38,839 nt of DNA. It comes from a virus. Position 1 is the first letter of the stretch, and each line of letters starts with the position of its first letter. The stretch is taken from IMG/VR virus record IMGVR_UViG_3300028840_001067, positions 1 through 38,839 of that record, one strand, 5' to 3'. Positions 7,688 to 35,963 of the stretch are shown in pieces. The translations under genes and the position numbers were made by a program. Below the pieces are notes generated by a model, which was not told the origin of the DNA, made no database searches, and was given only the letters and a program-made list of their open reading frames with translations.

Positions 7688-8443
7688 TTAACGTAGGTCT
7701 ATCCCTGTCAGTTCAAAGAATACTTCAGCATCATAGTTAGGTAAGGCTTTCACCTTAGCCTTATCCCTATTGGATGCCTTAGCATAACTATCCAGCCAGC
7801 TCTGTTTATAGTCATCACCTAAATTAAAGTAAAAGAAATTAGGGATGTCGGATGCTTCCCATACGCTGCGTAGGCAGGGTTTATTAAACACCTGAATAAT
7901 CTCATCCCGCTGTGTATTCAAGTAGCCACTGCTCCCGTTAGTACTATTCCAGTCTCCGGAGTTATAGTCTCCGGAGTTATGGCGGCCGGAGTTACGGTTT
8001 CCGGAGTTATAGTCTCCGGAGTTATGGCGGCCGGAGTTATAGTCTCCGGAGTTACGGTCTCCGGAGTTAGAGTGTCCGGAGTTACGGTTTCCGGAGTTAG
8101 AGTGGCCGGAGTTAGAGTGTCCGGAGTTATAGCGGCCGGAGACTAGAGCCTTCACTTCGTCATCAGTTAAAAAGCGTATGATGCGTAGACGGTTGGTACA
8201 CCCTTTGTGTTGGTGTGGTTGCTCAAACTCAACGTCACCTAATACCTCCACCTCGGCATATAGGTTCTCTGTGATATCCTTTTTTACTGGGTAGTACTGT
8301 AAAGTTAAGACTAGCTCTTTGCAGAAGTGGAAGCCTCGTTTACATAGAATAGGTAATTCCTTTAATTCGTAGGTCTTACCCTCTTCAAATTTAAAACCAC
8401 GGCACGTCCCGTCTTTGTTCAAGGCTTTATAATAAGTAGTCAT
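7688..8443 (-). CDS. Early protein with N-terminal YKA..DG.CRGF...GFHFC domain and a central (NSGxx)12-14 pentapeptide-like repeat
   Basis: 251 aa. MTTYYKALNKDGTCRGFKFEEGKTYE...CKRGFHFC resembles a widespread phage/bacterial domain that I recall as DUF7666 (from memory, unverified). It is followed by NSGHS NSGHS NSGNR NSGHS NSGDR NSGDY NSGRH .... Confidence 0.75.
   Translation of the reverse strand: MTTYYKALNKDGTCRGFKFEEGKTYELKELPILCKRGFHFCKELVLTLQYYPVKKDITENLYAEVEVLGDVEFEQPHQHKGCTNRLRIIRFLTDDEVKALVSGRYNSGHSNSGHSNSGNRNSGHSNSGDRNSGDYNSGRHNSGDYNSGNRNSGRHNSGDYNSGDWNSTNGSSGYLNTQRDEIIQVFNKPCLRSVWEASDIPNFFYFNLGDDYKQSWLDSYAKASNRDKAKVKALPNYDAEVFFELTGIDLR
7950..8150. repeat. 15-bp tandem repeat (about 13 units, core CCGGAGTT) inside the CDS
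   Basis: CCGGAGTT recurs at 7956, 7971, 7986 ... 8121 with exact 15-nt period, and a last degenerate unit (CCGGAGAC) lies at 8136. It encodes the NSGxx repeats on the minus strand. Confidence 0.9.
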
Positions 8444-10790: not shown

Positions 10791-11063
10791 TTACCCCTTG
10801 TTATACCCATGATAAGTCTCAAGCCATTCTTCAATGTCTTGCATACTCATTGTGTCGAAAACCTCACCGCATATGACAAGTAAGTCATGTGCGTCAGATT
10901 GTGTTATACCTTGTCCGTTAAGCAGTGAATGTAATCCATCAAGTGCACCCTTAGCTGCATGTGGGTAGTACCGCTTAGTAGCAGCAGCTTGCTGATGTTT
11001 AGTTAACTGCTCTGATATTTCAGCTAGGTATTTGAATAGTTCTGTTACTGTTATTGTTGTCAT
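10791..11063 (-). CDS. Hypothetical protein (90 aa from ATG 11063)
   Basis: MTTITVTELFKYL... starts 4 nt after the upstream stop (11068). The longer track ORF (to 11129) would overlap the upstream gene by 62 nt. Confidence 0.6.
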   Translation of the reverse strand: MTTITVTELFKYLAEISEQLTKHQQAAATKRYYPHAAKGALDGLHSLLNGQGITQSDAHDLLVICGEVFDTMSMQDIEEWLETYHGYNKG

Positions 11064-11067
11064 ATGT

Positions 11068-11292
11068 TCACCACTTATTATTAAAGCGCATAGCTTTACG
11101 ATAAGAACGCGCATACAATAACCTATCACGATTATTATAAAGATAATCTAGTTGCTGCGTGTCAATACGCATGGCCTCTAGTTTTAATTGGATATGCTGC
11201 TCATATTTATATGAGGGTAGCTTGTGTCTGTATTGTAAGTACATCTGTAATGACAGTGTCACACCCAGTGTAATAAATAATAGGATAGCCAT
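11068..11292 (-). CDS. Small membrane protein (one N-terminal TM segment)
   Basis: 74 aa. MAILLFITLGVTLSLQMYL is hydrophobic and the remainder is basic. AAGGA lies 7 nt upstream of the ATG. Confidence 0.6.
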   Translation of the reverse strand: MAILLFITLGVTLSLQMYLQYRHKLPSYKYEQHIQLKLEAMRIDTQQLDYLYNNRDRLLYARSYRKAMRFNNKW

Positions 11293-11740: not shown

Positions 11741-11877
11741 AATGTAATCCCTTAGTTAATTACCTTCATGACTACCTCTCAAGTGTAAGAGGTAGCTAGT
11801 AGATAACTAGTCTACAAAATAAGACTTGCTGATTGTCTTGTTAGTGCCTCATCATTAAACACCTTAATAAAAGATGC

Positions 11878-12006
11878 TTAATGATATACAGTATTCCCAG
11901 TTATTACGTGGTCAACCCGCTGTATTCGGTCCCGCTTTTCCCTCATGGCTTCTAACCTATCCCGACTGAGGAGAGCGTTCTTGCTCTTTGCCGTTGATTC
12001 AATCAT
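11878..12006 (-). CDS. Small basic protein, 42 aa; candidate first gene of the early arm (below ORF-track cutoff)
   Basis: Own translation: MIESTAKSKNALLSRDRLEAMREKRDRIQRVDHVITGNTVYH. A perfect AGGAGG lies 7 nt upstream of ATG 12006. Confidence 0.5.
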   Translation of the reverse strand: MIESTAKSKNALLSRDRLEAMREKRDRIQRVDHVITGNTVYH

Positions 12007-12124
12007 AGGCGGACCTCCTAGGATTTAGCAAGCTTTAACACATCGGACCACTGGATAATATTTTAAAAACAATTACTTAGTATAAAAAAAAAAAAACCCA
12101 AACCAGCGGTTTACTCCAAGTGGT

Positions 12125-12130
12125 ATTATA
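12125..12130 (-). promoter_or_regulatory. Candidate -10 element of the early (minus-strand) promoter
   Basis: The minus strand reads a perfect TATAAT preceded by a T-rich tract. There is no good -35 at 16-18 nt. Confidence 0.25.
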
Positions 12131-12274
12131 ACCCCCTAGGTATTAAAAAAACCCACAAGATAAACAAAAATCAAAAACTCAGCCTTTAGCCTAGCCAACG
12201 CTTTAGATAGTAACTGAATCTGTTGATAGTGTGTTCTCTGACACAGTTCTGACATTTATTGACACGGAATTGAC

Positions 12275-12304
12275 TTGACAAGATTCATAATCACCAACTA
12301 GTAT
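12275..12304 (+). promoter_or_regulatory. Sigma70-like promoter reading into hairpin array 1 and terS
   Basis: TTGACA (12275-12280), 18-nt spacer, TAGTAT (12299-12304). It lies within a cluster of TTGAC boxes. Confidence 0.35.
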
Positions 12305-12338
12305 TAGTAGTGGGAAGGGGGAAGAAGGGGGATGGGCA

Positions 12339-12644
12339 GTAGGCAGCAGCCTACATCTAGATGCCCTCTACTCCAATAGAGGGCTATATATTAAAACTTC
12401 TTACGGGAAGTTTAGCTATACTACCTCCTTAAAAGGTAGTATTAAGGATAGTATAGAATCTCTCTTAAAAAGAGATTCATATAGTATAAGTAATATAGAA
12501 GTTCTTATCAGGAGAACTTCTTATATAGTAGCTGTTCTCTAACCCTACCCGAGAACAGCATATAGTAGTAGATACTCTCTTACCTTATCATCGAGAGTAT
12601 CTTATATAATAAATTCTTTAGGGAAAGAATTTATATAGTATAAG
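12339..12644 (+). repeat. Hairpin array 1: nine different stem-loops separated by ATATAGTA-type linkers
   Basis: Perfect inverted repeats at 12339-54, 12363-84, 12394-413, 12418-42, 12456-78, 12497-521, 12531-59, 12570-602 and 12609-34. There is no ORF. Confidence 0.9.
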
Positions 12645-12788
12645 GACTTAAAAATTTATGAAGAACTGTACATTCTATGAACTTTGCATTCGAATTAAAT
12701 GCAATGGGCATAAGCTAAACAGCATGCTAAAAGCTGCTGGTAACTCCGTTCTCTTCGAGACGTGAGTTTATTTGCATAGAAGAAGGTA

Positions 12789-12806
12789 CTTAAATAATTA
12801 TTTAAG
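12789..12806. promoter_or_regulatory. 18-bp perfect palindrome upstream of terS (operator-like)
   Basis: CTTAAATAATTATTTAAG is exactly self-complementary and lies about 110 nt upstream of the terS start. Confidence 0.4.
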
Positions 12807-12917
12807 ACTTCTAAATCAATCATATATAATGCCTATGGCATTCTCTTCTATTCTTATCTATACTCTACTGTATGTTTATACAATTCTATTAATTCTTATC
12901 ATGTATTAGGTGACTCT

Positions 12918-13415
12918 GTGACTAACATTAATCATTGGAATAAAGGTGGTAGACCTACTAAGTACAAGAGTGAGTATATAGAACAGGGCTATAAGTTAGC
13001 TGTTCTTGGTGCTACTATTCCACAAATAGCCGATTTCTTTGAAGTATCTCACGAGACTATCTATGAGTGGATGAGAAAGCATCCCAAGTTTTCTGACGCC
13101 ATAAATAAAGGTAGAACTCAGATGGATATGGAAGTAGCTGAAAGACTCCTACATAAAGCTCAAGGGTACTCTCATAAAGAGACTAAAGTATTCTACGATA
13201 GTAAGACAGGGCAGATAGTTGAGCATGAGGTAGATAAACATTACGCTCCTGATACCACGGCGGCTATCTTCTGGTTGAAGAATAGACAGCCTGAGCTTTG
13301 GAGAGATAAGCAGGAAGTAGAGAGTAAGAATTTACATGCTGTAGTGAATCCAGAGGACGCTAAGTGGACCATTGAGTTTATCAATGCTGAGGACAAGGAA
13401 GAGAAGGATGACTAA
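12918..13415 (+). CDS. terS: Terminase small subunit
   Basis: 165 aa, GTG start. GGRPTKYKSEY...IPQIADFFEVSHETIYEWMRKHPKFSDAINKG is an HTH, and the ...AAIFWLKNRQPELWRDK motif is typical of HTH-type small terminases. It is the first gene of the late arm. Confidence 0.8.
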   Translation: MTNINHWNKGGRPTKYKSEYIEQGYKLAVLGATIPQIADFFEVSHETIYEWMRKHPKFSDAINKGRTQMDMEVAERLLHKAQGYSHKETKVFYDSKTGQIVEHEVDKHYAPDTTAAIFWLKNRQPELWRDKQEVESKNLHAVVNPEDAKWTIEFINAEDKEEKDD

Positions 13416-14076: not shown

Positions 14077-14444
14077 AACTACTCCTAGCTATTACCCTAT
14101 CTCTCTTAATCCTAACAGGGTGTTCTGCGTTAGCTCCTCTAGCTACATCAGCTATCACTGGTAGCGTTGCAAAGAAAGAGCCTCTCGTAGGAATAGATAC
14201 GGAAGTAGTTGCAGGGGATAAGACTCAAGGTGTAGATACGGGTACAGATACTAAGCTAGATGATGTGACATTGAGTGGTAATGCTCAGGTTCATACGAAC
14301 ACAACAGGCAAGGCCATTAACGCCACGGGAACAGACCATTTGGTCCTTAACGAAGGTGTACCCTTCTGGCAAGCTGGTGCGTTAGCTTTGTTATGTATCA
14401 TGGTAGGTTTATTCATGCCTCAGTTAGTGATTAGAAGGAAATGA
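14073..14444 (+). CDS. Lipoprotein with C-terminal transmembrane anchor; unimolecular-spanin (u-spanin) candidate
   Basis: 123 aa. Signal plus lipobox MKLLLAITLSLLILTG|C. T/G/V-rich middle region. C-terminal TM FWQAGALALLCIMVGLFMPQLVI followed by RRK. Confidence 0.7.
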   Translation: MKLLLAITLSLLILTGCSALAPLATSAITGSVAKKEPLVGIDTEVVAGDKTQGVDTGTDTKLDDVTLSGNAQVHTNTTGKAINATGTDHLVLNEGVPFWQAGALALLCIMVGLFMPQLVIRRK

Positions 14445-14445
14445 T

Positions 14446-15930
14446 ATGCCTAAGCTTAAAGTGAATAAGAAGCTTGAGAAGTTTCTCACTACACATAAAC
14501 AGATTAAAGTAGCTATCGGTGGGAGGGGCTCAGGTAAGTCTATCGGCTTTGGTGACATGCTCACTGTCAAGATGGACGCAGAGAAGGCGGACGTCTATTG
14601 TCTTCGTGAATTCCAAGACTCTATAGCAGACTCCGTACACAGGGTGTTTGAGGACAGTATTAAGGAACGTCTACAGCTTGAAGGCTGGACAGTACAGAGG
14701 GACGCTATCATAGCTCCTAATGGTGCTAGGACAGTGTACAAAGGTGCTGCACGTAACCCCAACAGTATACAGTCTGCACAAGGCTTTAAGTACTCTTGGT
14801 TTGAAGAAGCACACACAATCTCACAAGAGACACTAGATAAACTCCTCCCCACTATCCTACGTAATGTAGGCGCTGAGTGTTGGTTTAGTGCCAACCCACA
14901 GAGTCAAGCTGACCCATTTAGTAAACGTTTCATCAACCCTTATAAGAAGTGGTTGGATAGGGACGGGTATTACGAAGATGACATGCACCTCATTGTGGTG
15001 ATTAACTGGCGTGATAACCCTTGGTGGAACGATGCAGCTAATGCGTTACGTCTTCAGGATAAGAGGACACTTACACGTGCTAAGTATGACTGGATTTGGG
15101 AAGGGTATTTCAATGATGAAGTGGAGAACTCAATCATCAAGGCTGAGTGGTTCGATGCTGCTGTCAATGCCCATAAGATAGAGCGGTATAAAGATTTCTT
15201 TAAACCTCGTGGTGTTGTCATAGCTGCACATGACCCCAGCGACTCAGGTAACGATGATGCGGGTTTCGCCATTAGACAGGGGAGTGTTATCACTCAAGTA
15301 CGTGCTAAGGACTCAGGAGAGATAGACACTAAAGCTGAGTGGGCTATGAACCTCGCTATTGATGATAGAGCAGATTGGTTTGTTTGGGACGGTGATGGCA
15401 TGGGTACAGGTCTGAAGAGACAAGTACATGACCATCTAGCCGGAAAGCGTATTGACTATCACATGTTCAAGGGAAGCCTGTCTGGTAGTGGTCAGGATAA
15501 TGCAGATAAGATTTACGATAAGGTAGATAAGCAAGCAGGGCAAAAGCAATACAGCTACAAGGATACGTTTAAGAACAACCGTGCTCAGTATTACACTGAA
15601 CTAGCTAGACGTTTTTATAACACATACAGGCTAGTAGAGCATGGTGTTTATTGTGACGTTGAGGACTGCATCAGTATCGATAGTGACGGTGTAGATAGTC
15701 TCCCGTCTCTACGTAGTGAGCTCTGCCGTATACCGTCTAAGCATGGGAACGGTGGTCTCATCCAGATTATGAACAAGCAGGAAATGAAGAAGGAGGGTAT
15801 CAGCTCTCCTAACTTGGCTGATAGTGTTATGTACACTATGTGGAATCCACCAGCTAAAAGAAAGAACAATGCCCTAGGATTTATTCATCATCAGACACAG
15901 GCTAGTGATTATGACCCATTCGGATATTAA
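14446..15930 (+). CDS. terL: Terminase large subunit
   Basis: 494 aa. Walker A is AIGGRGSGKSIG, with acidic nuclease-domain motifs in the C-terminal half (AAHDPSDSGNDDAG). Size and position fit. Confidence 0.9.
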   Translation: MPKLKVNKKLEKFLTTHKQIKVAIGGRGSGKSIGFGDMLTVKMDAEKADVYCLREFQDSIADSVHRVFEDSIKERLQLEGWTVQRDAIIAPNGARTVYKGAARNPNSIQSAQGFKYSWFEEAHTISQETLDKLLPTILRNVGAECWFSANPQSQADPFSKRFINPYKKWLDRDGYYEDDMHLIVVINWRDNPWWNDAANALRLQDKRTLTRAKYDWIWEGYFNDEVENSIIKAEWFDAAVNAHKIERYKDFFKPRGVVIAAHDPSDSGNDDAGFAIRQGSVITQVRAKDSGEIDTKAEWAMNLAIDDRADWFVWDGDGMGTGLKRQVHDHLAGKRIDYHMFKGSLSGSGQDNADKIYDKVDKQAGQKQYSYKDTFKNNRAQYYTELARRFYNTYRLVEHGVYCDVEDCISIDSDGVDSLPSLRSELCRIPSKHGNGGLIQIMNKQEMKKEGISSPNLADSVMYTMWNPPAKRKNNALGFIHHQTQASDYDPFGY

Positions 15931-18725: not shown

Positions 18726-19542
18726 ATTAAATCACAAGCTAATGGAAGAAGAGTTAGGTGCAGAAGGTACAGTAATTTCAGGCGGTGAAGCATCTGGTTC
18801 GTGGTATGACTCCTTTGCTGAAGATATACGTTCTAACCAGAATGTTACTAAGTTTAGCAGTGCTGAAGAGTTGGCTAAGAGTTATATCAACGCCCAGAGC
18901 CTGATAGGTCGTGATAAGATCCCAATGCCTGTTACAGATGAGGACTGGTCAAATACCTACGCTCGTCTAGGACGCCCCGAAGATGCAGCGGGGTATGAAT
19001 TCAACGTCCCTGAAGGCGTTCAGGTTAACGAGGAACGTCAAGGTGCATTCCGTGAATTGGCGTATCAGATTGGCCTATCGCAGAAACAAGCCGAAGCTTT
19101 AATGAACTTTGACTTTGAGTCACAGAACGCTGCTCTAGATGCTTACACTACTAGCCAACATCAAGCCACGGAAGAGGCTATTGGTTCATTACAGAAGGAA
19201 TGGGGTAATGCCTTTGAACAGAATGTCACTATCGCTAACCGTGCTTTATCTGAGTTTGCCTCTGAGTCTGATATAGAGTTTCTACAAGAAGCTGAAATTA
19301 ACGGGGTTAAGTTAGGCGACCACCCAGTACTCATTAAACTATTTAACAACGTAGGTAAAGGTATGATGGAGAGCGGTAAGCTAGAGGGTAAAGGCTCTGA
19401 CTTAGTGATGACACCTGATGAAGTGCAAGCTAAACAAGCACAGCTTATGGCGCACCCAGCTTACACTGACCGTAATCACCCAGAGCATAAAGTGATTAAT
19501 GGAGAAGTACAGAAACTGTTTAAACTTCAGTATCCTGACTAA
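18718..19542 (+). CDS. Scaffolding protein
   Basis: 274 aa, acidic and helical, between portal and capsid as in T7 gp9. GGAG lies upstream. Confidence 0.65.
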   Translation: MFKLNHKLMEEELGAEGTVISGGEASGSWYDSFAEDIRSNQNVTKFSSAEELAKSYINAQSLIGRDKIPMPVTDEDWSNTYARLGRPEDAAGYEFNVPEGVQVNEERQGAFRELAYQIGLSQKQAEALMNFDFESQNAALDAYTTSQHQATEEAIGSLQKEWGNAFEQNVTIANRALSEFASESDIEFLQEAEINGVKLGDHPVLIKLFNNVGKGMMESGKLEGKGSDLVMTPDEVQAKQAQLMAHPAYTDRNHPEHKVINGEVQKLFKLQYPD

Positions 19543-19558: not shown

Positions 19559-19583
19559 AGAGCCCCTTAAGTGGGGCTTTTTA
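19559..19583 (+). terminator. Rho-independent terminator after the scaffold gene
   Basis: AGCCCC-ttaagt-GGGGCT followed by TTTTT. Confidence 0.75.
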
Positions 19584-19630: not shown

Positions 19631-19659
19631 TTGACAAGGTTCCTAAACAGAACTACATT
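19631..19659 (+). promoter_or_regulatory. Sigma70-like promoter reading into hairpin array 2
   Basis: TTGACA (19631-36), 17-nt spacer, TACATT (19654-59). Confidence 0.4.
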
Positions 19660-19669
19660 TTAAATAACA

Positions 19670-19987
19670 CTCTATAGAGGAACACACTAAGGGGGTGTGT
19701 GTTCCGATAGATATCCCTAGCAAGGGATATAGTAGTAGATATCCTCAGAAGAGGATATAAGTAATGTTCTCTCCCCAAAAGAGAACATAGTAAGTACAGT
19801 ATAGAATCTCTTTTTAAGAGAGATTCATATAGTAGTAGATACTCTCTTACCTTATCATCGAGAGTATCTTATATAATAAATTCTTTAGGGAAAGAATTTA
19901 TATAGTATAAGTAATATAGAAGTTCTCCTGATAAGAACTTCTATATAGTAGCTGTTCTCTAACCCTACCCGAGAACAGCATATAGTA
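19670..19987 (+). repeat. Hairpin array 2: nine stem-loops with ATAGTA-type linkers; five modules shared with array 1
   Basis: Inverted repeats at 19679-705, 19711-30, 19739-58, 19764-88, 19804-26, 19837-69, 19876-901, 19918-42 and 19951-79. 19826-19911 is identical to 12559-12644 (86 bp). Confidence 0.9.
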
Positions 19988-20023
19988 TACACGTATAAGA
20001 ATTGACATAGAATTGACGTACTC

Positions 20024-20052
20024 TTGACAGTACGTTAACACACGTGTAGTTT
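20024..20052 (+). promoter_or_regulatory. Sigma70-like promoter for the capsid operon (downstream of array 2)
   Basis: TTGACA (20024-29), 17-nt spacer, TAGTTT (20047-52). The -35 sits in the loop of hairpin 20016-20035. Confidence 0.35.
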
Positions 20053-20291
20053 CCTACCTTAGATGCTCAAGAAAAGTTTAACTTATAAAAAATATTTGAA
20101 TTATGATTACACTGCTGCTACTATTAATCATGACGTGCATATGTGTTGATATGCTCGTTTAAAACATATCAGATAACTCCTCAGGAGCCTGAACCTAACT
20201 TGACTGATAATCTAGTGTAGGGAACGGTTACCCGATAACCCCGAAGCTGGAACAAAGATAAACTACTTTTGTTTAACTAAGGGGACATTAA

Positions 20292-21158
20292 ATGTCTAAT
20301 CAAATTACTACTGCATTTGTTAATCAGTTTGGTGCAAACATCGACCTACTGTCACAGCAAATGGATTCTCGTTTCATGGGTAAAGTTCGTATGGAAAGCC
20401 AAAATAGTGAGTTTGGTTTCTACGAGCAAATAGGCCCTACTGCCGCTGTAGAGCGTACCTCACGTCACTCTGATACACCACGTGTTGACACTCCACACGC
20501 ACGCCGTGCTGTCACTCTTCGTACATTCGAATGGTCTGATTTAATCGACCACGCTGATAAAGTGAAGATGTTGATTGACCCAACTTCAAGCTATGCTAAA
20601 TCCGCCATGATGGCGATGAACCGTAGTCGCGATGATATCATCATAGAAGCTGCTCTTGGTTCTGCTAAGACTGGTAAGAATGGTGACACTCTTGTAGCTC
20701 TTCCTGCTTCTCAGAAGATTGCAGCAGCTGCGGGGGGTCTAACTTTAGATAAGCTACGCGAAGCAGCAGAAATACTAAACGCTAATGACGTTGATGAAAG
20801 TATCAACCGTTACATGGCTGTTACTTCTAAACAGTTAACTGACCTATTGAACATCACTCAGGTTACTGACGCTGACTTTAACACTGTTAAAGCTTTGGTA
20901 GAGGGTAAGGTCGACACATTCATGGGCTTTAAGTTCCTACGCTGTGAGCGTCTAACTACAGATGGTTCTGGTGACCGCCAAGTTATTGCATGGGCTGAAG
21001 ATGGTCTGTTGCTAGCTCAAGGTAACAACATGAACAAAACTCGTATCACTGAGCGTGATGACAAGTCTTACTCTGTGCAAGTGTTCCGTTCTGAAATGTT
21101 CGGTGCTACTCGTATGGAAGAAGAAAAAGTTGTTGAAATCGCTTGTGTTGAGTCTTAA
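20292..21158 (+). CDS. Major capsid protein
   Basis: 288 aa. AAGGGGA SD, a long structured leader, position after the scaffold gene, and a terminator two genes downstream. Confidence 0.75.
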   Translation: MSNQITTAFVNQFGANIDLLSQQMDSRFMGKVRMESQNSEFGFYEQIGPTAAVERTSRHSDTPRVDTPHARRAVTLRTFEWSDLIDHADKVKMLIDPTSSYAKSAMMAMNRSRDDIIIEAALGSAKTGKNGDTLVALPASQKIAAAAGGLTLDKLREAAEILNANDVDESINRYMAVTSKQLTDLLNITQVTDADFNTVKALVEGKVDTFMGFKFLRCERLTTDGSGDRQVIAWAEDGLLLAQGNNMNKTRITERDDKSYSVQVFRSEMFGATRMEEEKVVEIACVES

Positions 21159-21696: not shown

Positions 21697-21719
21697 GGGG
21701 GCCTAGCGTCCCCTTTTTT
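21697..21719 (+). terminator. Rho-independent terminator after the capsid pair
   Basis: GGGGGC-ctagc-GTCCCC (one G.U pair) followed by TTTTTT. Confidence 0.75.
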
Positions 21720-34760: not shown

Positions 34761-35963
34761 TCAATCCAATGTATAAACTTTAGGACGTATGTTCACATGC
34801 GTGCCGCTAACAGCATTAGCTAACATGTCCTTAACTTCTTCCACTGTTATACGTTCTCTACCCTTCTCCCCGTAGGTTTTAGAGCGGAGTACACACGTAA
34901 GGAAAGAGGAGCTAAGGAAACCAGCGTCATGTGCCCATGCATCACTAGGTGCTAGGTTGTTAAAGCACTCCACTATAACACCCCCTAATTCCTTATGAGC
35001 AAACGCATGATGTAAGTGGCCTATATCGACATACTTATACTGCGCTTCACCGAAGTCCTGTCTAAACTTAGTAGCCATAACTTCAACAAGTCTCTTAGGC
35101 TGACACTTATCAGAGTGATGGGACATAACAAAGGTATTACCCATACGGTAGGCTGTATAAACGCAAGTATTATCGAGTATGGTTAGACGTGGTTCTTTCT
35201 CATAGAGATTTTGTAGTAGTTCCACCATCCAGAAATCGTTAGCCCTGCTATGATTCCCTTGGTTGATGATGACATCCACATACTTAAACTTAGATAAAGC
35301 ATACTCTACGATAGAGCGCATGATACGAGTATAGATATGTACCATCTTACGGTAGCGTGTATCTATATCTAGGTCATGCCCAGACATAGCCGTCTTGCCT
35401 ACTACATTCTCATAGTGAGTAAAGTCACCCATGTCCTGAATAACACACCGCTCGTACTTACCTACTGCCACTCTATCCATAAGCGCGTGAAGGGCCTTAC
35501 ATAACTCTGCCTCTGCTATCTTCAAGTCGAAGTTGTGGCCTGTCTCTTTACTGTAAGCAAGCATACCTATGTGAGCGTCACCGATATTAAACCAAGGAAC
35601 TATGTCTGTATTAGCACCTTTAATCTGAGGACTGGTGGTAGGTTTAATTTTAGGTAGCTCCTCCATCATAGCATCGATAGCTATCTGCATTAACTTGAGA
35701 CGCTGCTCAGCGCTGAAGCTGCGCTTAACCCATCGTAGTTTTTTATCTCCTACATCATCCTCTAGTGTGGATGTACCACTAAGTGAGCCAGCACTCTTTC
35801 GAATACGGGCTAGTGTCATATGAATATTACGCTCACTAATACCTAATAGCTCACCAGTTTTAGCTGCACTCTGTCCATTATCTAAATGTGCTTGTAAGAT
35901 CTCCCTTTGTCTATCGGTCGTACAAGCCTCCATAAACAAGGGGTCGTTATAATCTATCTTCAC
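34761..35963 (-). CDS. HTH (sigma-70 region 4 / LuxR-like) fused to a calcineurin-like metallophosphoesterase
   Basis: 400 aa, GTG start with GGAG 6 nt upstream. N-terminal HTH TDRQREILQAHLDNGQSAAKTGELLGISERNIHMTLARIRKS. Phosphoesterase motifs GDAHIG, QDMGDFTH, NQGNHS, SHHSD and GHLHH occur in canonical order. Confidence 0.7.
   Translation of the reverse strand: MKIDYNDPLFMEACTTDRQREILQAHLDNGQSAAKTGELLGISERNIHMTLARIRKSAGSLSGTSTLEDDVGDKKLRWVKRSFSAEQRLKLMQIAIDAMMEELPKIKPTTSPQIKGANTDIVPWFNIGDAHIGMLAYSKETGHNFDLKIAEAELCKALHALMDRVAVGKYERCVIQDMGDFTHYENVVGKTAMSGHDLDIDTRYRKMVHIYTRIMRSIVEYALSKFKYVDVIINQGNHSRANDFWMVELLQNLYEKEPRLTILDNTCVYTAYRMGNTFVMSHHSDKCQPKRLVEVMATKFRQDFGEAQYKYVDIGHLHHAFAHKELGGVIVECFNNLAPSDAWAHDAGFLSSSFLTCVLRSKTYGEKGRERITVEEVKDMLANAVSGTHVNIRPKVYTLD

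Follow-up and report, generated by a model that had tools for sequence, protein, structure and literature searches.

The window analyzed here, the whole 38,839-nucleotide stretch of IMG/VR virus record IMGVR_UViG_3300028840_001067, is the essentially complete genome (~38.8 kb, assembling as a circle) of an uncultured podovirus, and it carries two paralogous arrays of perfect hairpins. Array 1 (12339-12644) lies upstream of terS, and array 2 (19671-19990) lies between the scaffold and capsid genes. In both, hairpins with differing stems alternate with short linkers of uniform orientation, and each array begins 35-65 nt past its putative promoter. The feature is real, statistically striking, present as two arrays and unusually dynamic, and has so far been seen in a single uncultured phage lineage. 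We tentatively favor a reading in which the arrays are a promoter-driven multi-hairpin non-coding RNA (ncRNA) or leader that would display single-stranded AGUA linkers and would be remodeled at the DNA level by template switching and recombination.

Anatomy of the two arrays

A sequence-only reading of this DNA had described nine consecutive perfect inverted repeats in array 1, and all nine were recovered in the same places. They are given here with the final linker, which was read from the sequence.

12339-12354, plus strand: hairpin A1, stem 6 bp, loop 4 nt
12363-12384, plus strand: hairpin A2, stem 8 bp, loop 6 nt
12394-12413, plus strand: hairpin A3, stem 7 bp, loop 6 nt
12418-12442, plus strand: hairpin A4, stem 9 bp, loop 7 nt
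12456-12478, plus strand: hairpin U5 of array 1, stem 8 bp, loop 7 nt
12497-12521, plus strand: hairpin U6 of array 1, stem 9 bp, loop 7 nt
12531-12559, plus strand: hairpin U7 of array 1, stem 9 bp, loop 11 nt
12570-12602, plus strand: hairpin U8 of array 1, stem 10 bp, loop 13 nt
12609-12634, plus strand: hairpin U9 of array 1, stem 11 bp, loop 4 nt
12633-12640, plus strand: final linker of array 1

Seven of these stems reach at least 8 bp, compared with 0.24 expected and a maximum of three in 1000 dinucleotide shuffles of the same 306 bp. RNA folding on both strands returned the expected string of hairpins (z=-4.9 on the plus strand and -6.9 on the minus strand), and no open reading frame (ORF) of at least 30 amino acids (aa) crosses the array, in line with the earlier description of the region as non-coding.

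Array 2, which that description did not include, occupies a 750-bp gap between the scaffold gene, which ends at 19542, and the capsid gene, which starts at 20292.

19679-19705, plus strand: hairpin B1, perfect, unique to array 2, extendable to 19671-19711
19711-19730, plus strand: hairpin B2, perfect, unique to array 2
19739-19758, plus strand: hairpin B3, perfect, unique to array 2
19764-19788, plus strand: hairpin B4, perfect, unique to array 2
19804-19826, plus strand: shared hairpin U5 of array 2, loop inverted
19837-19869, plus strand: shared hairpin U8 of array 2
19876-19901, plus strand: shared hairpin U9 of array 2
19914-19946, plus strand: shared hairpin U6 of array 2, loop inverted
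19951-19979, plus strand: shared hairpin U7 of array 2, followed by a final ATATAGTA linker and the array end at 19990

All nine of its perfect hairpins (19679-19979) have stems of at least 8 bp (9/9, with 0.19 expected and a maximum of two in the shuffles), and its RNA fold z-scores are -9.8 (plus) and -7.7 (minus). Together, the two arrays contain 16 of the 25 hairpins in the window with a stem of at least 8 bp, packed into 1.6% of its length.

Each array consists of four promoter-proximal hairpins of its own (A1-A4 and B1-B4, which are unrelated) and five units, U5-U9, that both arrays share with identical stems and linkers. The shared units run in the order U5-U6-U7-U8-U9 in array 1 and U5-U8-U9-U6-U7 in array 2, and in the window the loops of U5 and U6 in array 2 exactly reverse-complement their array 1 counterparts. 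With U9, whose loop is seen in opposite orientations between the arrays once strains are compared, three of the five shared units differ by an exact loop inversion. Across both arrays there are thirteen different stems of 6-13 bp, all perfect, and units are spaced 24-41 bp apart. The stems had been described as unrelated; instead, most of them resemble diverged copies of a ..TTCTCT/AGAGAA.. palindrome. The CU-rich 5' arms and GA-rich 3' arms noted earlier are real, with pyrimidines at 45 of the 52 loop-proximal 5'-arm bases, but the bias is not strand-specific: because the palindromes are perfect, it is identical on both strands.

The linkers measure 4-18 nt, are AT-rich and contain a recurrent core, (T)AGTA, that always lies on the plus strand. 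Over the 18 linkers of both arrays, AGTA occurs 17 times and TACT never, GTA 17 times and TAC twice, and TAG 14 times and CTA once. The linkers alone carry the orientation of the arrays, and both arrays are co-oriented with their own putative promoter and with the late genes that follow (the terS operon and the capsid gene). The full consensus proposed in the sequence-only reading, ATATAGTA, describes the linkers in part: it is exact in only four linkers of array 1, and the first four of that array (ATCTAGAT, TATATATTA, AGCT and TAAGGATAGTATA) fit it poorly. In the window as a whole, exact ATATAGTA occurs 11 times, with 4.3 expected; four copies are in array 1 and five at 19727-19987. Many AGUA copies are unpaired in the predicted plus-strand RNA fold, especially in array 2.

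Both arrays stand behind sigma70-like promoters, in a setting that includes the following elements.

12239-12280, plus strand: five TGAC(A) repeats with ~10-11 bp spacing, ending in a near-palindromic CTTGACAAG that includes the -35 hexamer (read from the sequence)
12275-12304, plus strand: P1, putative sigma70-type promoter (consensus scan), identical in all strain contigs
12312-12336, plus strand: G-rich tract GGGAAGGGGGAAGAAGGGGGATGGG, between P1 and array 1 (regex scan of both strands)
19561-19582, plus strand: canonical intrinsic terminator, AGCCCC-TTAAGT-GGGGCT and then TTTT, after the scaffold gene and upstream of P2
19631-19659, plus strand: P2, putative sigma70-type promoter with TTGACA (19631-19636), a 17-nt spacer and TACATT (scan, 10/12)
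20002-20052, plus strand: three TTGAC(A/G) repeats at 20002, 20013 and 20024 (read from the sequence)
21697-21719: canonical terminator after the capsid operon

P1 has the architecture previously assigned to it, with TTGACA at 12275-12280, an 18-nt spacer and TAGTAT at 12299-12304 (sigma70-type score 10/12), and would start transcription near 12311. P2 is the only 10/12 sigma70-like site on the plus strand between 15000 and 34900, and array 2 begins ~40 nt after its TTGACA. The two promoters have the near-palindromic CTTGACAAGRTTC in common, and the exact 9-mer CTTGACAAG occurs in the window only at 12274 and 19630. Clusters of TGAC(A) at roughly helical spacing lie to the left of array 1 (12239-12280) and to the right of array 2 (20002-20029). 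The last of the latter repeats, combined with a 17-nt spacer and TAGTTT (20024-20052), is a candidate capsid-proximal promoter that scores under the scan threshold. Such promoter-like sites thus stand between each array and its gene, at 12802-12830 for terS and at 20024-20052 for the capsid gene. Within the arrays themselves, sigma70 scans found no complete plus-strand promoter; array 2 has only a 9/12 site at 19986-20013, which lies mostly past the last hairpin. The proposal that array 1 is the leader of the packaging operon is therefore plausible yet incomplete, given the second array upstream of the capsid gene and the extra promoter-like sites before terS and the capsid gene.

The G-rich tract GGGAAGGGGGAAGAAGGGGGATGGG is the sole canonical G-quadruplex motif on either strand of the 38.8-kb window. 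It starts right past the predicted P1 start and holds two copies of AAGGGGG, a Shine-Dalgarno (SD)-like heptamer resembling the capsid SD (20279); the B1 loop TAAGGGGGT (19688-19696) bears the same heptamer. As the sequence-only reading had argued, the array hairpins are not ordinary terminators: their stems are AT-rich and lack U-runs, whereas the phage has canonical GC-rich, T-run terminators at 19561-19582 and 21697-21719. The presence of these terminators implies that the host polymerase uses ordinary signals of this kind. Under a lenient terminator scan, A2 (plus strand) and U6 as read on the minus strand were the only units to pass, and none came from array 2.

Three further observations concern the surroundings of array 1. 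The 5' arm and loop of A4 (12418-12442) hold ACCTCCTTA, identical to the 3' end of 16S rRNA (the anti-SD); it occurs once in the window and may be due to chance (~0.3 expected). A solitary hairpin of the same style, CTACCTCT-8 nt-AGAGGTAG and then CTAGTAGATA (11772-11795, no strand assigned), stands in the same intergenic region as array 1 and, judging by this likeness, may belong to the array system. Directly past array 1 lies a 35-aa Cys-rich ORF (12658-12765, plus strand), which is probably not a conserved gene: in strain contig L376 it has two single-nucleotide polymorphisms (SNPs) and a frame-changing 10-nt insertion (called as 43 aa).

Turnover of units among near-identical strains

Exact copies of the capsid protein and of a 77-aa early protein were looked up, giving contigs from about nine samples (ENA, JGI and Logan), many of which terminate inside an array. 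In six contigs compared with the window over 12339-12644, the sole differences are full inversions of the U6 loop (12506-12512) and of the U9 loop (12620-12623). A1-A4 are invariant in these six contigs, and the flanks of array 1 have ordinary SNPs. The loop states of array 1 are as follows.

Window: U5+ U6+ U9+
Contig L376: U5+ U6+ U9-
Contig L374: U5+ U6- U9-
Contigs L378 and L375: U5+ U6-

In array 2, U5 is in the plus state in contig L369 and in the minus state in all others. Array 2 also has four small variants (19872, 19908, an inserted T at 19942, and 19991); they fall in linkers or just past the last linker, and none is in a stem.

The number of units changes as well. Two contigs from sample 3300018080 (L382 and L370) together imply the order B1-4, U5-, U8, U9, U6-, U7, U8, U9, U6-, U7, which is probably a duplication of a four-unit block; the two U8-U9 copies differ by one SNP. 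Contig L375 (also handled as L368; ena:ERZ27256796:k141_2126547, 9260 bp) runs from the left flank of array 1 through A1-A4, U5+, U6- and U7 and is there joined straight to the capsid flank, skipping ~7.4 kb from terS through the scaffold gene. This junction would be either a natural deletion (a defective genome) produced by inter-array recombination or an assembly chimera formed via the 87-bp shared segment. The loop states, by contrast, are unlikely to be assembly artefacts: each has unique flanks within k=141, and the same arrays turn up in assemblies from ENA, JGI and Logan.

Loop orientation is polymorphic in U5, U6 and U9, that is, in 3/3 of the units found in opposite states between the arrays, and in 0/10 of the others (U7 and U8, which have the same orientation in both arrays, and A1-A4 and B1-B4, which occur in a single array). 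Moreover, every 'new' loop state in one array is a state present in the other. This 3/3 versus 0/10 pattern favors gene conversion between the arrays, and we set aside recurrent de novo flipping as the sole cause. The simplest account would have two layers, a few older loop inversions and then frequent exchange, by short-patch gene conversion or recombination, either from array to array or among co-infecting strains. Inter-array exchange explains why U5-U9 are identical between the arrays and why A1-4 and B1-4 are unrelated.

Template switching during replication can invert loops and can create or keep perfect stems (PMC8794818). The events seen here closely resemble that process, in which the loop between perfect inverted repeats is inverted exactly and stems and flanks are left untouched (PMC8794818); it is, however, a mutational mechanism and not a functional element, and here it would act on arrayed paralogous hairpins whose products recombination moves between arrays. 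By the evidence of the contigs, the arrays evolve as a hairpin minisatellite of duplicated and reordered units. Small inversions in chloroplast genomes likewise invert a loop between inverted repeats.

Genomic setting and relatives

The genome is organized in two blocks. On the minus strand, an early/replication block runs from ~11740 leftwards, across the window ends, to 34411, and its products include a primase, a helicase, a DNA polymerase, an exonuclease, an SbcD/Mre11-like nuclease and an HNH protein. On the plus strand, a late block leads from terS (12918-13415, plus strand; phrog_309, E=2e-51) to terL, portal, scaffold, capsid and tail genes, up to 34179. The replication module (primase, helicase, DNA polymerase and exonuclease) is that of the T7 supergroup; the DNA polymerase gene has 74.5% nucleotide identity to its counterpart in Vibrio phage VpV262, the capsid is nearest to HTVC010P-type pelagiphages (~55% amino-acid identity), and TerL belongs to the Terminase_3/PBSX type. 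No phage RNA polymerase and no initiator protein could be recognized among the window's proteins, and transcription must therefore rely on the host enzyme.

Array 2 sits in what looks like an inserted, lineage-specific transcription unit composed of terminator, P2 and array. Three relatives with 82%, 80% and 66% capsid identity (L084, L085 and L088, respectively) pass from the scaffold gene to the capsid 5'-untranslated region (5'-UTR) within ~170-400 bp and have no array. Homology with them begins at ~20165, so the stretch from 19583 to ~20160 is lineage-specific, and what follows it is conserved.

20165-20291, plus strand: conserved capsid 5'-UTR (alignment with L084, L085 and L088), where homology with the relatives starts

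These ~120 nt upstream of the capsid gene (L084:1290-1418; L085:2900-3000) are kept at 66-82% capsid identity in the form GCCTGAACCT..TCTAGTGTAGGGA..AAAGCT..TTTTGTTTAAC and may be a structured 5'-UTR or a translational element of the capsid mRNA.

No hairpin cluster was found in the compared stretches of relatives at or below 82% TerL or capsid identity; some of these contigs end less than 1.2 kb upstream of terL and leave the site upstream of terS uncovered. Searches of IMG/VR and JGI metagenomes with terS and the 140-aa early protein returned the same phage and otherwise proteins of at most 55% identity. Two pattern scans of IMG/VR for three spaced (A)TATAGTA copies gave, among the matches listed, TA-rich low-complexity DNA, with the same phage as the only true match. 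Overall, arrays whose perfect hairpins contain GC and are not identical occurred only in this phage among ~460 loci examined. Two of these loci (L065 and L073) carry iteron-like repeats and not hairpin arrays of this kind, and the identical AACTATAGT palindromes of another (L270) are a different thing.

The earlier statement that no described element has this layout holds up, with no Rfam match and, by blastn against GenBank phages, no homologue of either array. Rfam gave nothing at the gathering threshold over the whole window, nor at E<=1 around array 1 in accepted matches; a single weak CbSR1 match (E=0.35) is far under its gathering score. No tRNAs and no known RNA families were found in the window.

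Several other features of the genome stand beside these results. An SbcD/Mre11-like 'DNA repair exonuclease' is encoded at 34761-35963 on the minus strand (phrog_704, E=9e-95); enzymes of this class cut DNA hairpins, a point of note given the at least 18 perfect palindromes of this genome. A 42-aa ORF (11878-12006, minus strand) with a strong SD, AGGAGG, 7 nt ahead of its ATG is probably the first minus-strand early gene; the sole promoter-like site nearby on that strand (12031-12002) would initiate inside this ORF and is therefore not taken as the true early promoter. Between the genes for a 74-aa and the 140-aa early protein lies a hypervariable slot (10791-11129, minus strand) that contains a 107/112-aa ORF in the window and L374, a 308-aa D12-class DNA methyltransferase in L375/L378 and a 90-aa ORF in L376/L379. 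A run of 13 A (12076-12089) differs in length by 2-3 A among strains, and the next 100 bp (12100-12200) are SNP-dense in L381; contigs L380 and L381 end near 12076-12200. This might reflect a physical end of the genome, a terminal repeat or simply a homopolymer problem. Finally, the repeats CTCCGGAG-TTATAGT/TTACGGT-CTCCGGAG at 7954-8081 (minus strand) appear in palindrome scans and are not part of the hairpin arrays; they are coding, inside an ORF (7688-8443) for a DUF7666 and pentapeptide-repeat protein.

What the arrays may do

In the reading that we tentatively prefer, the host RNA polymerase would transcribe the arrays from P1 and P2 into long untranslated RNAs. Each RNA would fold into a string of independent hairpins of arbitrary sequence that hold short (U)AGUA linkers between them, and it could offer many binding sites, as a platform or decoy, to a protein or nuclease recognizing the linker, alone or together with the adjacent helix. 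Alternatively, it could be a processing array that yields ~35-40-nt hairpin RNAs. Stem and loop sequences would be free and the number and order of units tolerated, with only the pairing and the linker orientation being of importance. Template switching during replication would produce the loop inversions and mismatch-free stems, homologous exchange via shared units and linkers would lead to homogenization, shuffling and changes in copy number, and the diversified stems would limit recombinational collapse. We favor a role at the RNA level because the arrays sit behind the two best plus-strand promoters, are co-oriented with them, resemble an inserted unit (an 'RNA moron') and have the design of a multivalent RNA. 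That loops are unconstrained and stems are kept follows from the occurrence of both loop orientations of U5, U6 and U9 in otherwise identical contigs from independent assemblies.

The logic would resemble that of CsrB/RsmZ or of ToxI/pseudo-ToxI. CsrB and RsmZ are multi-hairpin RNAs of ~300-400 nt that repeat a short motif and leave the helix sequence free. Their GGA motif is mostly found in hairpin loops, whereas the recurrent motif here is in the linkers and the loops are unconstrained. ToxI arrays are promoter-driven tandem units of ~36 nt that give a non-coding RNA, and phage pseudo-ToxI expands, recombines and decoys a host endoribonuclease (PMC3475682), an example of how non-coding repeat RNA in a phage can grow by slippage or recombination and act as a decoy (PMC3475682). 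ToxI repeats, however, are near-identical and direct and form pseudoknots after defined cleavage; here, the units are simple hairpins that have only the linker in common. As the units are not direct repeats of each other, Rfam gives no match and no toxin gene is present, the arrays do not fit the type III antitoxin pattern.

TIGR-Tas systems (Faure et al. 2025, PMC12045711) offer a more recently described likeness, namely phage-borne arrays of ~36-nt units with, in the stem-loop variant, 'variable but consistently palindromic' stems; transcripts of TIGR arrays are cut in the linkers during processing (PMC12045711). A TIGR unit differs in having two 8-12-nt spacers, box C/D flanks and either alternating edge and loop repeats or a large loop, and the locus has an adjacent gene for a Nop-domain Tas protein and a terminator. 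In the present arrays, the linker is the single recurrent element, and the loops vary in length (4-13 nt) and in sequence and cannot hold two 8-12-nt spacers. Inspection by eye showed no UG...CCA-type (box C/D) motif in the array loops. Sequence-level searches found no Tas protein: the best tblastn match of SpTasH in the window has E 2.2 (the query itself was verified by its PDB match, E=1e-212), and Pfam gave no Nop domain in 20 early or unknown proteins. The genes that flank the arrays are small early ORFs, terS, scaffold and capsid. On the anatomy of the arrays, which also have no terminator, and on the lack of a Tas match in these searches, we rejected a TIGR-Tas assignment. As a control, a true TIGR array was recognized in Salicola phage CGphi29 (NC_020844; L542:15370-15750), where AGCGAGCCA/AGACAACCA alternate with 9-nt spacers. 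In this saltern siphovirus, the TIGR-Tas locus (14395-15750) lies directly past the major head gene, much as array 2 stands next to the capsid gene, and has ~ten units and then a terminator. Its tasH (14395-15324) is annotated as 'hypothetical protein' (SLPG_00018) and matches TasH in PDB (E=1e-212), and a small coding sequence (15290-15490) is annotated in the array region.

Several observations weigh against an RNA-level role. Promoter activity, transcript ends and processing are all deduced from the DNA. Neither array is followed by a terminator, which leaves no discrete ncRNA in evidence, and no candidate for a linker-binding protein was found, the neighboring early proteins having no informative Pfam or PHROG matches. 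Both strands fold equally well because the palindromes are perfect, and folding thus gives no signal of an RNA strand; stems with no G-U pair and no mismatch at all are found more typically in palindromes at the DNA level than in RNA helices under selection. The linkers tolerate strain SNPs, the first four of array 1 fit the motif poorly, and the comparative data come from one species-level lineage only. A leader that stabilizes mRNA has a further difficulty: in E. coli, simple orthogonal stem-loops do little to stop the scanning RNase E, which bypasses them easily, whereas a G-quadruplex does protect (PMC9943677).

A more ambitious version, which we consider unlikely, would see in the arrays a phage 'hairpin cassette' RNA of a new class, or the equivalent in single-stranded DNA. 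Arbitrary perfect hairpins would present or protect the (U)AGUA linkers and so titrate or misdirect a host nuclease, an RNA-binding protein or a structure-sensing defense, with fast diversification by loop inversion, block duplication and exchange between copies.

It is possible, though somewhat unlikely, that the arrays are instead transcription-activated replication origins akin to the T7 primary origin or to ColE1. Transcription and the G-rich tract would open the DNA or form an R-loop, and hairpins on the displaced plus strand would leave the (T)AGTA linkers accessible for priming by the primase/helicase or for primosome assembly. A T7 primary origin comprises promoters, a hairpin and an AT-rich stretch (PMC11707656). 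The likeness lies in the strong promoter directly before an AT-rich hairpin stretch, the T7-like replisome and, at array 1, a G-rich tract that could favor an R-loop; this tract, the only G4/G-cluster motif of the genome, is on the non-template strand between P1 and array 1. The phage combines a T7-supergroup replication module with no recognized RNA polymerase or initiator protein of its own. Array 1 lies in a 1.2-kb divergent region by the early/replication genes, at the cumulative GC-skew minimum, although this minimum coincides with the switch in coding strand and is hence uninformative. The strand-specific linkers carry GTA, which has the same form as the recognition triplets of the T7 (GTC) and T4 (GTT) primases. 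Loop inversions show that the hairpins form on single-stranded DNA during replication. Against an origin, array 2 is an insertion specific to this lineage, and its site between the scaffold and capsid genes would be odd for an origin and is empty in close relatives. Array 2 also has no G-rich tract; moreover, known origins contain one or few hairpins, a number that nine far exceed.

A functionless or selfish hairpin minisatellite seems to us somewhat doubtful too. Here, a unit amplified by slippage would have given diverged copies that template switching keeps perfect, ectopic spread would have carried them to a second site, and the proximity of promoters would be incidental. The confinement of the arrays to one lineage and their absence from the homologous capsid site of relatives agree with this, as do the variation in copy number, unit order and loop orientation among near-identical strains, the acceptance of SNPs by the linkers and the lack of a partner protein or a known RNA family. 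Template switching can yield perfect stems and loop inversions without selection (PMC8794818). Yet compact lytic phage genomes rarely retain ~650 bp of useless DNA, and direct copies 7.4 kb apart invite lethal deletions, of which contig L375 may be one. Both arrays lie directly behind near-consensus promoters with a common CTTGACAAG, all thirteen stems are perfect even though they have diverged far more than the strains, and the 17:0 strand bias of AGTA and the unit spacing of 24-41 bp suggest constraint.

The REP/BIME elements (bacterial interspersed mosaic elements) of enterobacteria are similar in forming extragenic clusters of regularly spaced palindromic units with short linkers (PMC2817692, PMC3333891). 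The arrays differ in that REPs have a conserved, GC-rich, imperfect palindrome in hundreds of copies and alternating orientation, along with RAYT/TnpA-like Y1 transposases, whereas here the palindromes are perfect, AT-rich and all different and make up two arrays and perhaps one solitary copy. With thirteen different stems and a uniform linker orientation there is no conserved unit, and no RAYT or IS200-IS605-type Y1 transposase was found among the window ORFs scanned with PHROGs or Pfam. BIMEs are transcribed but untranslated, and their copy number varies between strains.

The arrays could also act as a transcriptional timer, which we judge quite unlikely. Modules of a nascent-RNA hairpin and a -10-like TATAGT on the non-template strand would pause or attenuate the host polymerase and thereby gate the late genes, possibly until a phage factor appears, in analogy to lambda PR'/Q or to put. 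The promoters ahead of the late genes look strong and constitutive in a phage that has no RNA polymerase of its own, a hairpin lies immediately upstream of each TATAGT, and TATAGT retains the critical A (position 2) and T (position 6) of the -10 hexamer. Most documented sigma70-dependent pauses, however, lie within the first tens of nucleotides of a transcript, and the arrays reach ~+330, beyond this usual zone; the linkers also lack the Y-G step of the elemental pause consensus. A core regulator should be conserved, yet array 2 is absent from relatives. The further promoter-like sites downstream of the arrays for terS and the capsid gene, and the variation in unit number between strains, fit a timer poorly. 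Homologues of Q, N or put were looked for and not seen, and no curated Rfam model was matched. HK022 put differs in its make-up as well, with two specific stem-loops of ~65-70 nt just past the promoter that render the polymerase terminator-resistant, in place of nine simple hairpins.

A TerS-binding (pac) region, or another DNA-protein assembly site at which a multimeric protein occupies the repeated (T)AGTA linkers, is most unlikely: array 1, with its nine units, lies 270-580 bp upstream of terS, and a Terminase_3/PBSX-type TerL, as encoded here, goes with headful packaging from a pac site near terS, but the capsid gene has an array upstream of it as well, the units are spaced unevenly (24-41 bp) and out of helical phase, palindromes are not known to play a part between the binding sites of a pac site, and unit number varies between strains.

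Two further comparisons made in the sequence-only reading concern form more than function. The likeness to the PeSL elements of T4-type phages extends to short, promoter-associated stem-loop modules that are repeated in a phage genome and shuffled by recombination (PMC4122927, PMC2839356), and here, too, units are shuffled, flipped and duplicated between loci and strains: their order differs between arrays, and loop states and block copy number differ between strains. It ends there, since a PeSL combines a stem-loop with a full promoter, an SD and an ORF start and is dispersed between small genes, whereas here a single promoter precedes each array of head-to-tail units. At 24-41 bp, the units are too short to have a -35/N17/-10 promoter each; the positions lying 17 nt ahead of each TATAGT fall in hairpin arms that do not resemble TTGACA, and no SD and no ORF of at least 30 aa occurs within or between units. 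The image of a reversed CRISPR is apt as a description only, as the constant part measures only 4-9 nt and the variable parts pair with themselves, and no cas gene turned up. The arrays belong to no described family among those compared.

Palindromes in T7-like vibriophages can trigger Lamassu/DdmABC defense (PMC11707656). At least 18 of them are thus potentially costly, which is a mild argument for a benefit to the phage. Whichever reading holds, the strain comparison documents the natural evolution of short perfect palindromes with unusual clarity, by loop inversion, inter-array gene conversion and block duplication on a near mutation-free background, and it bears on template-switch mutagenesis and on why metagenomic assemblies break or mis-join at such sites. 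If the arrays are origins, they would show how replication starts in a T7-supergroup phage without its own RNA polymerase. If they work as RNA, they would be a structurally new type of phage non-coding array beside CRISPR mini-arrays, pseudo-ToxI and TIGR, one in which the helices vary and a short linker is constant.

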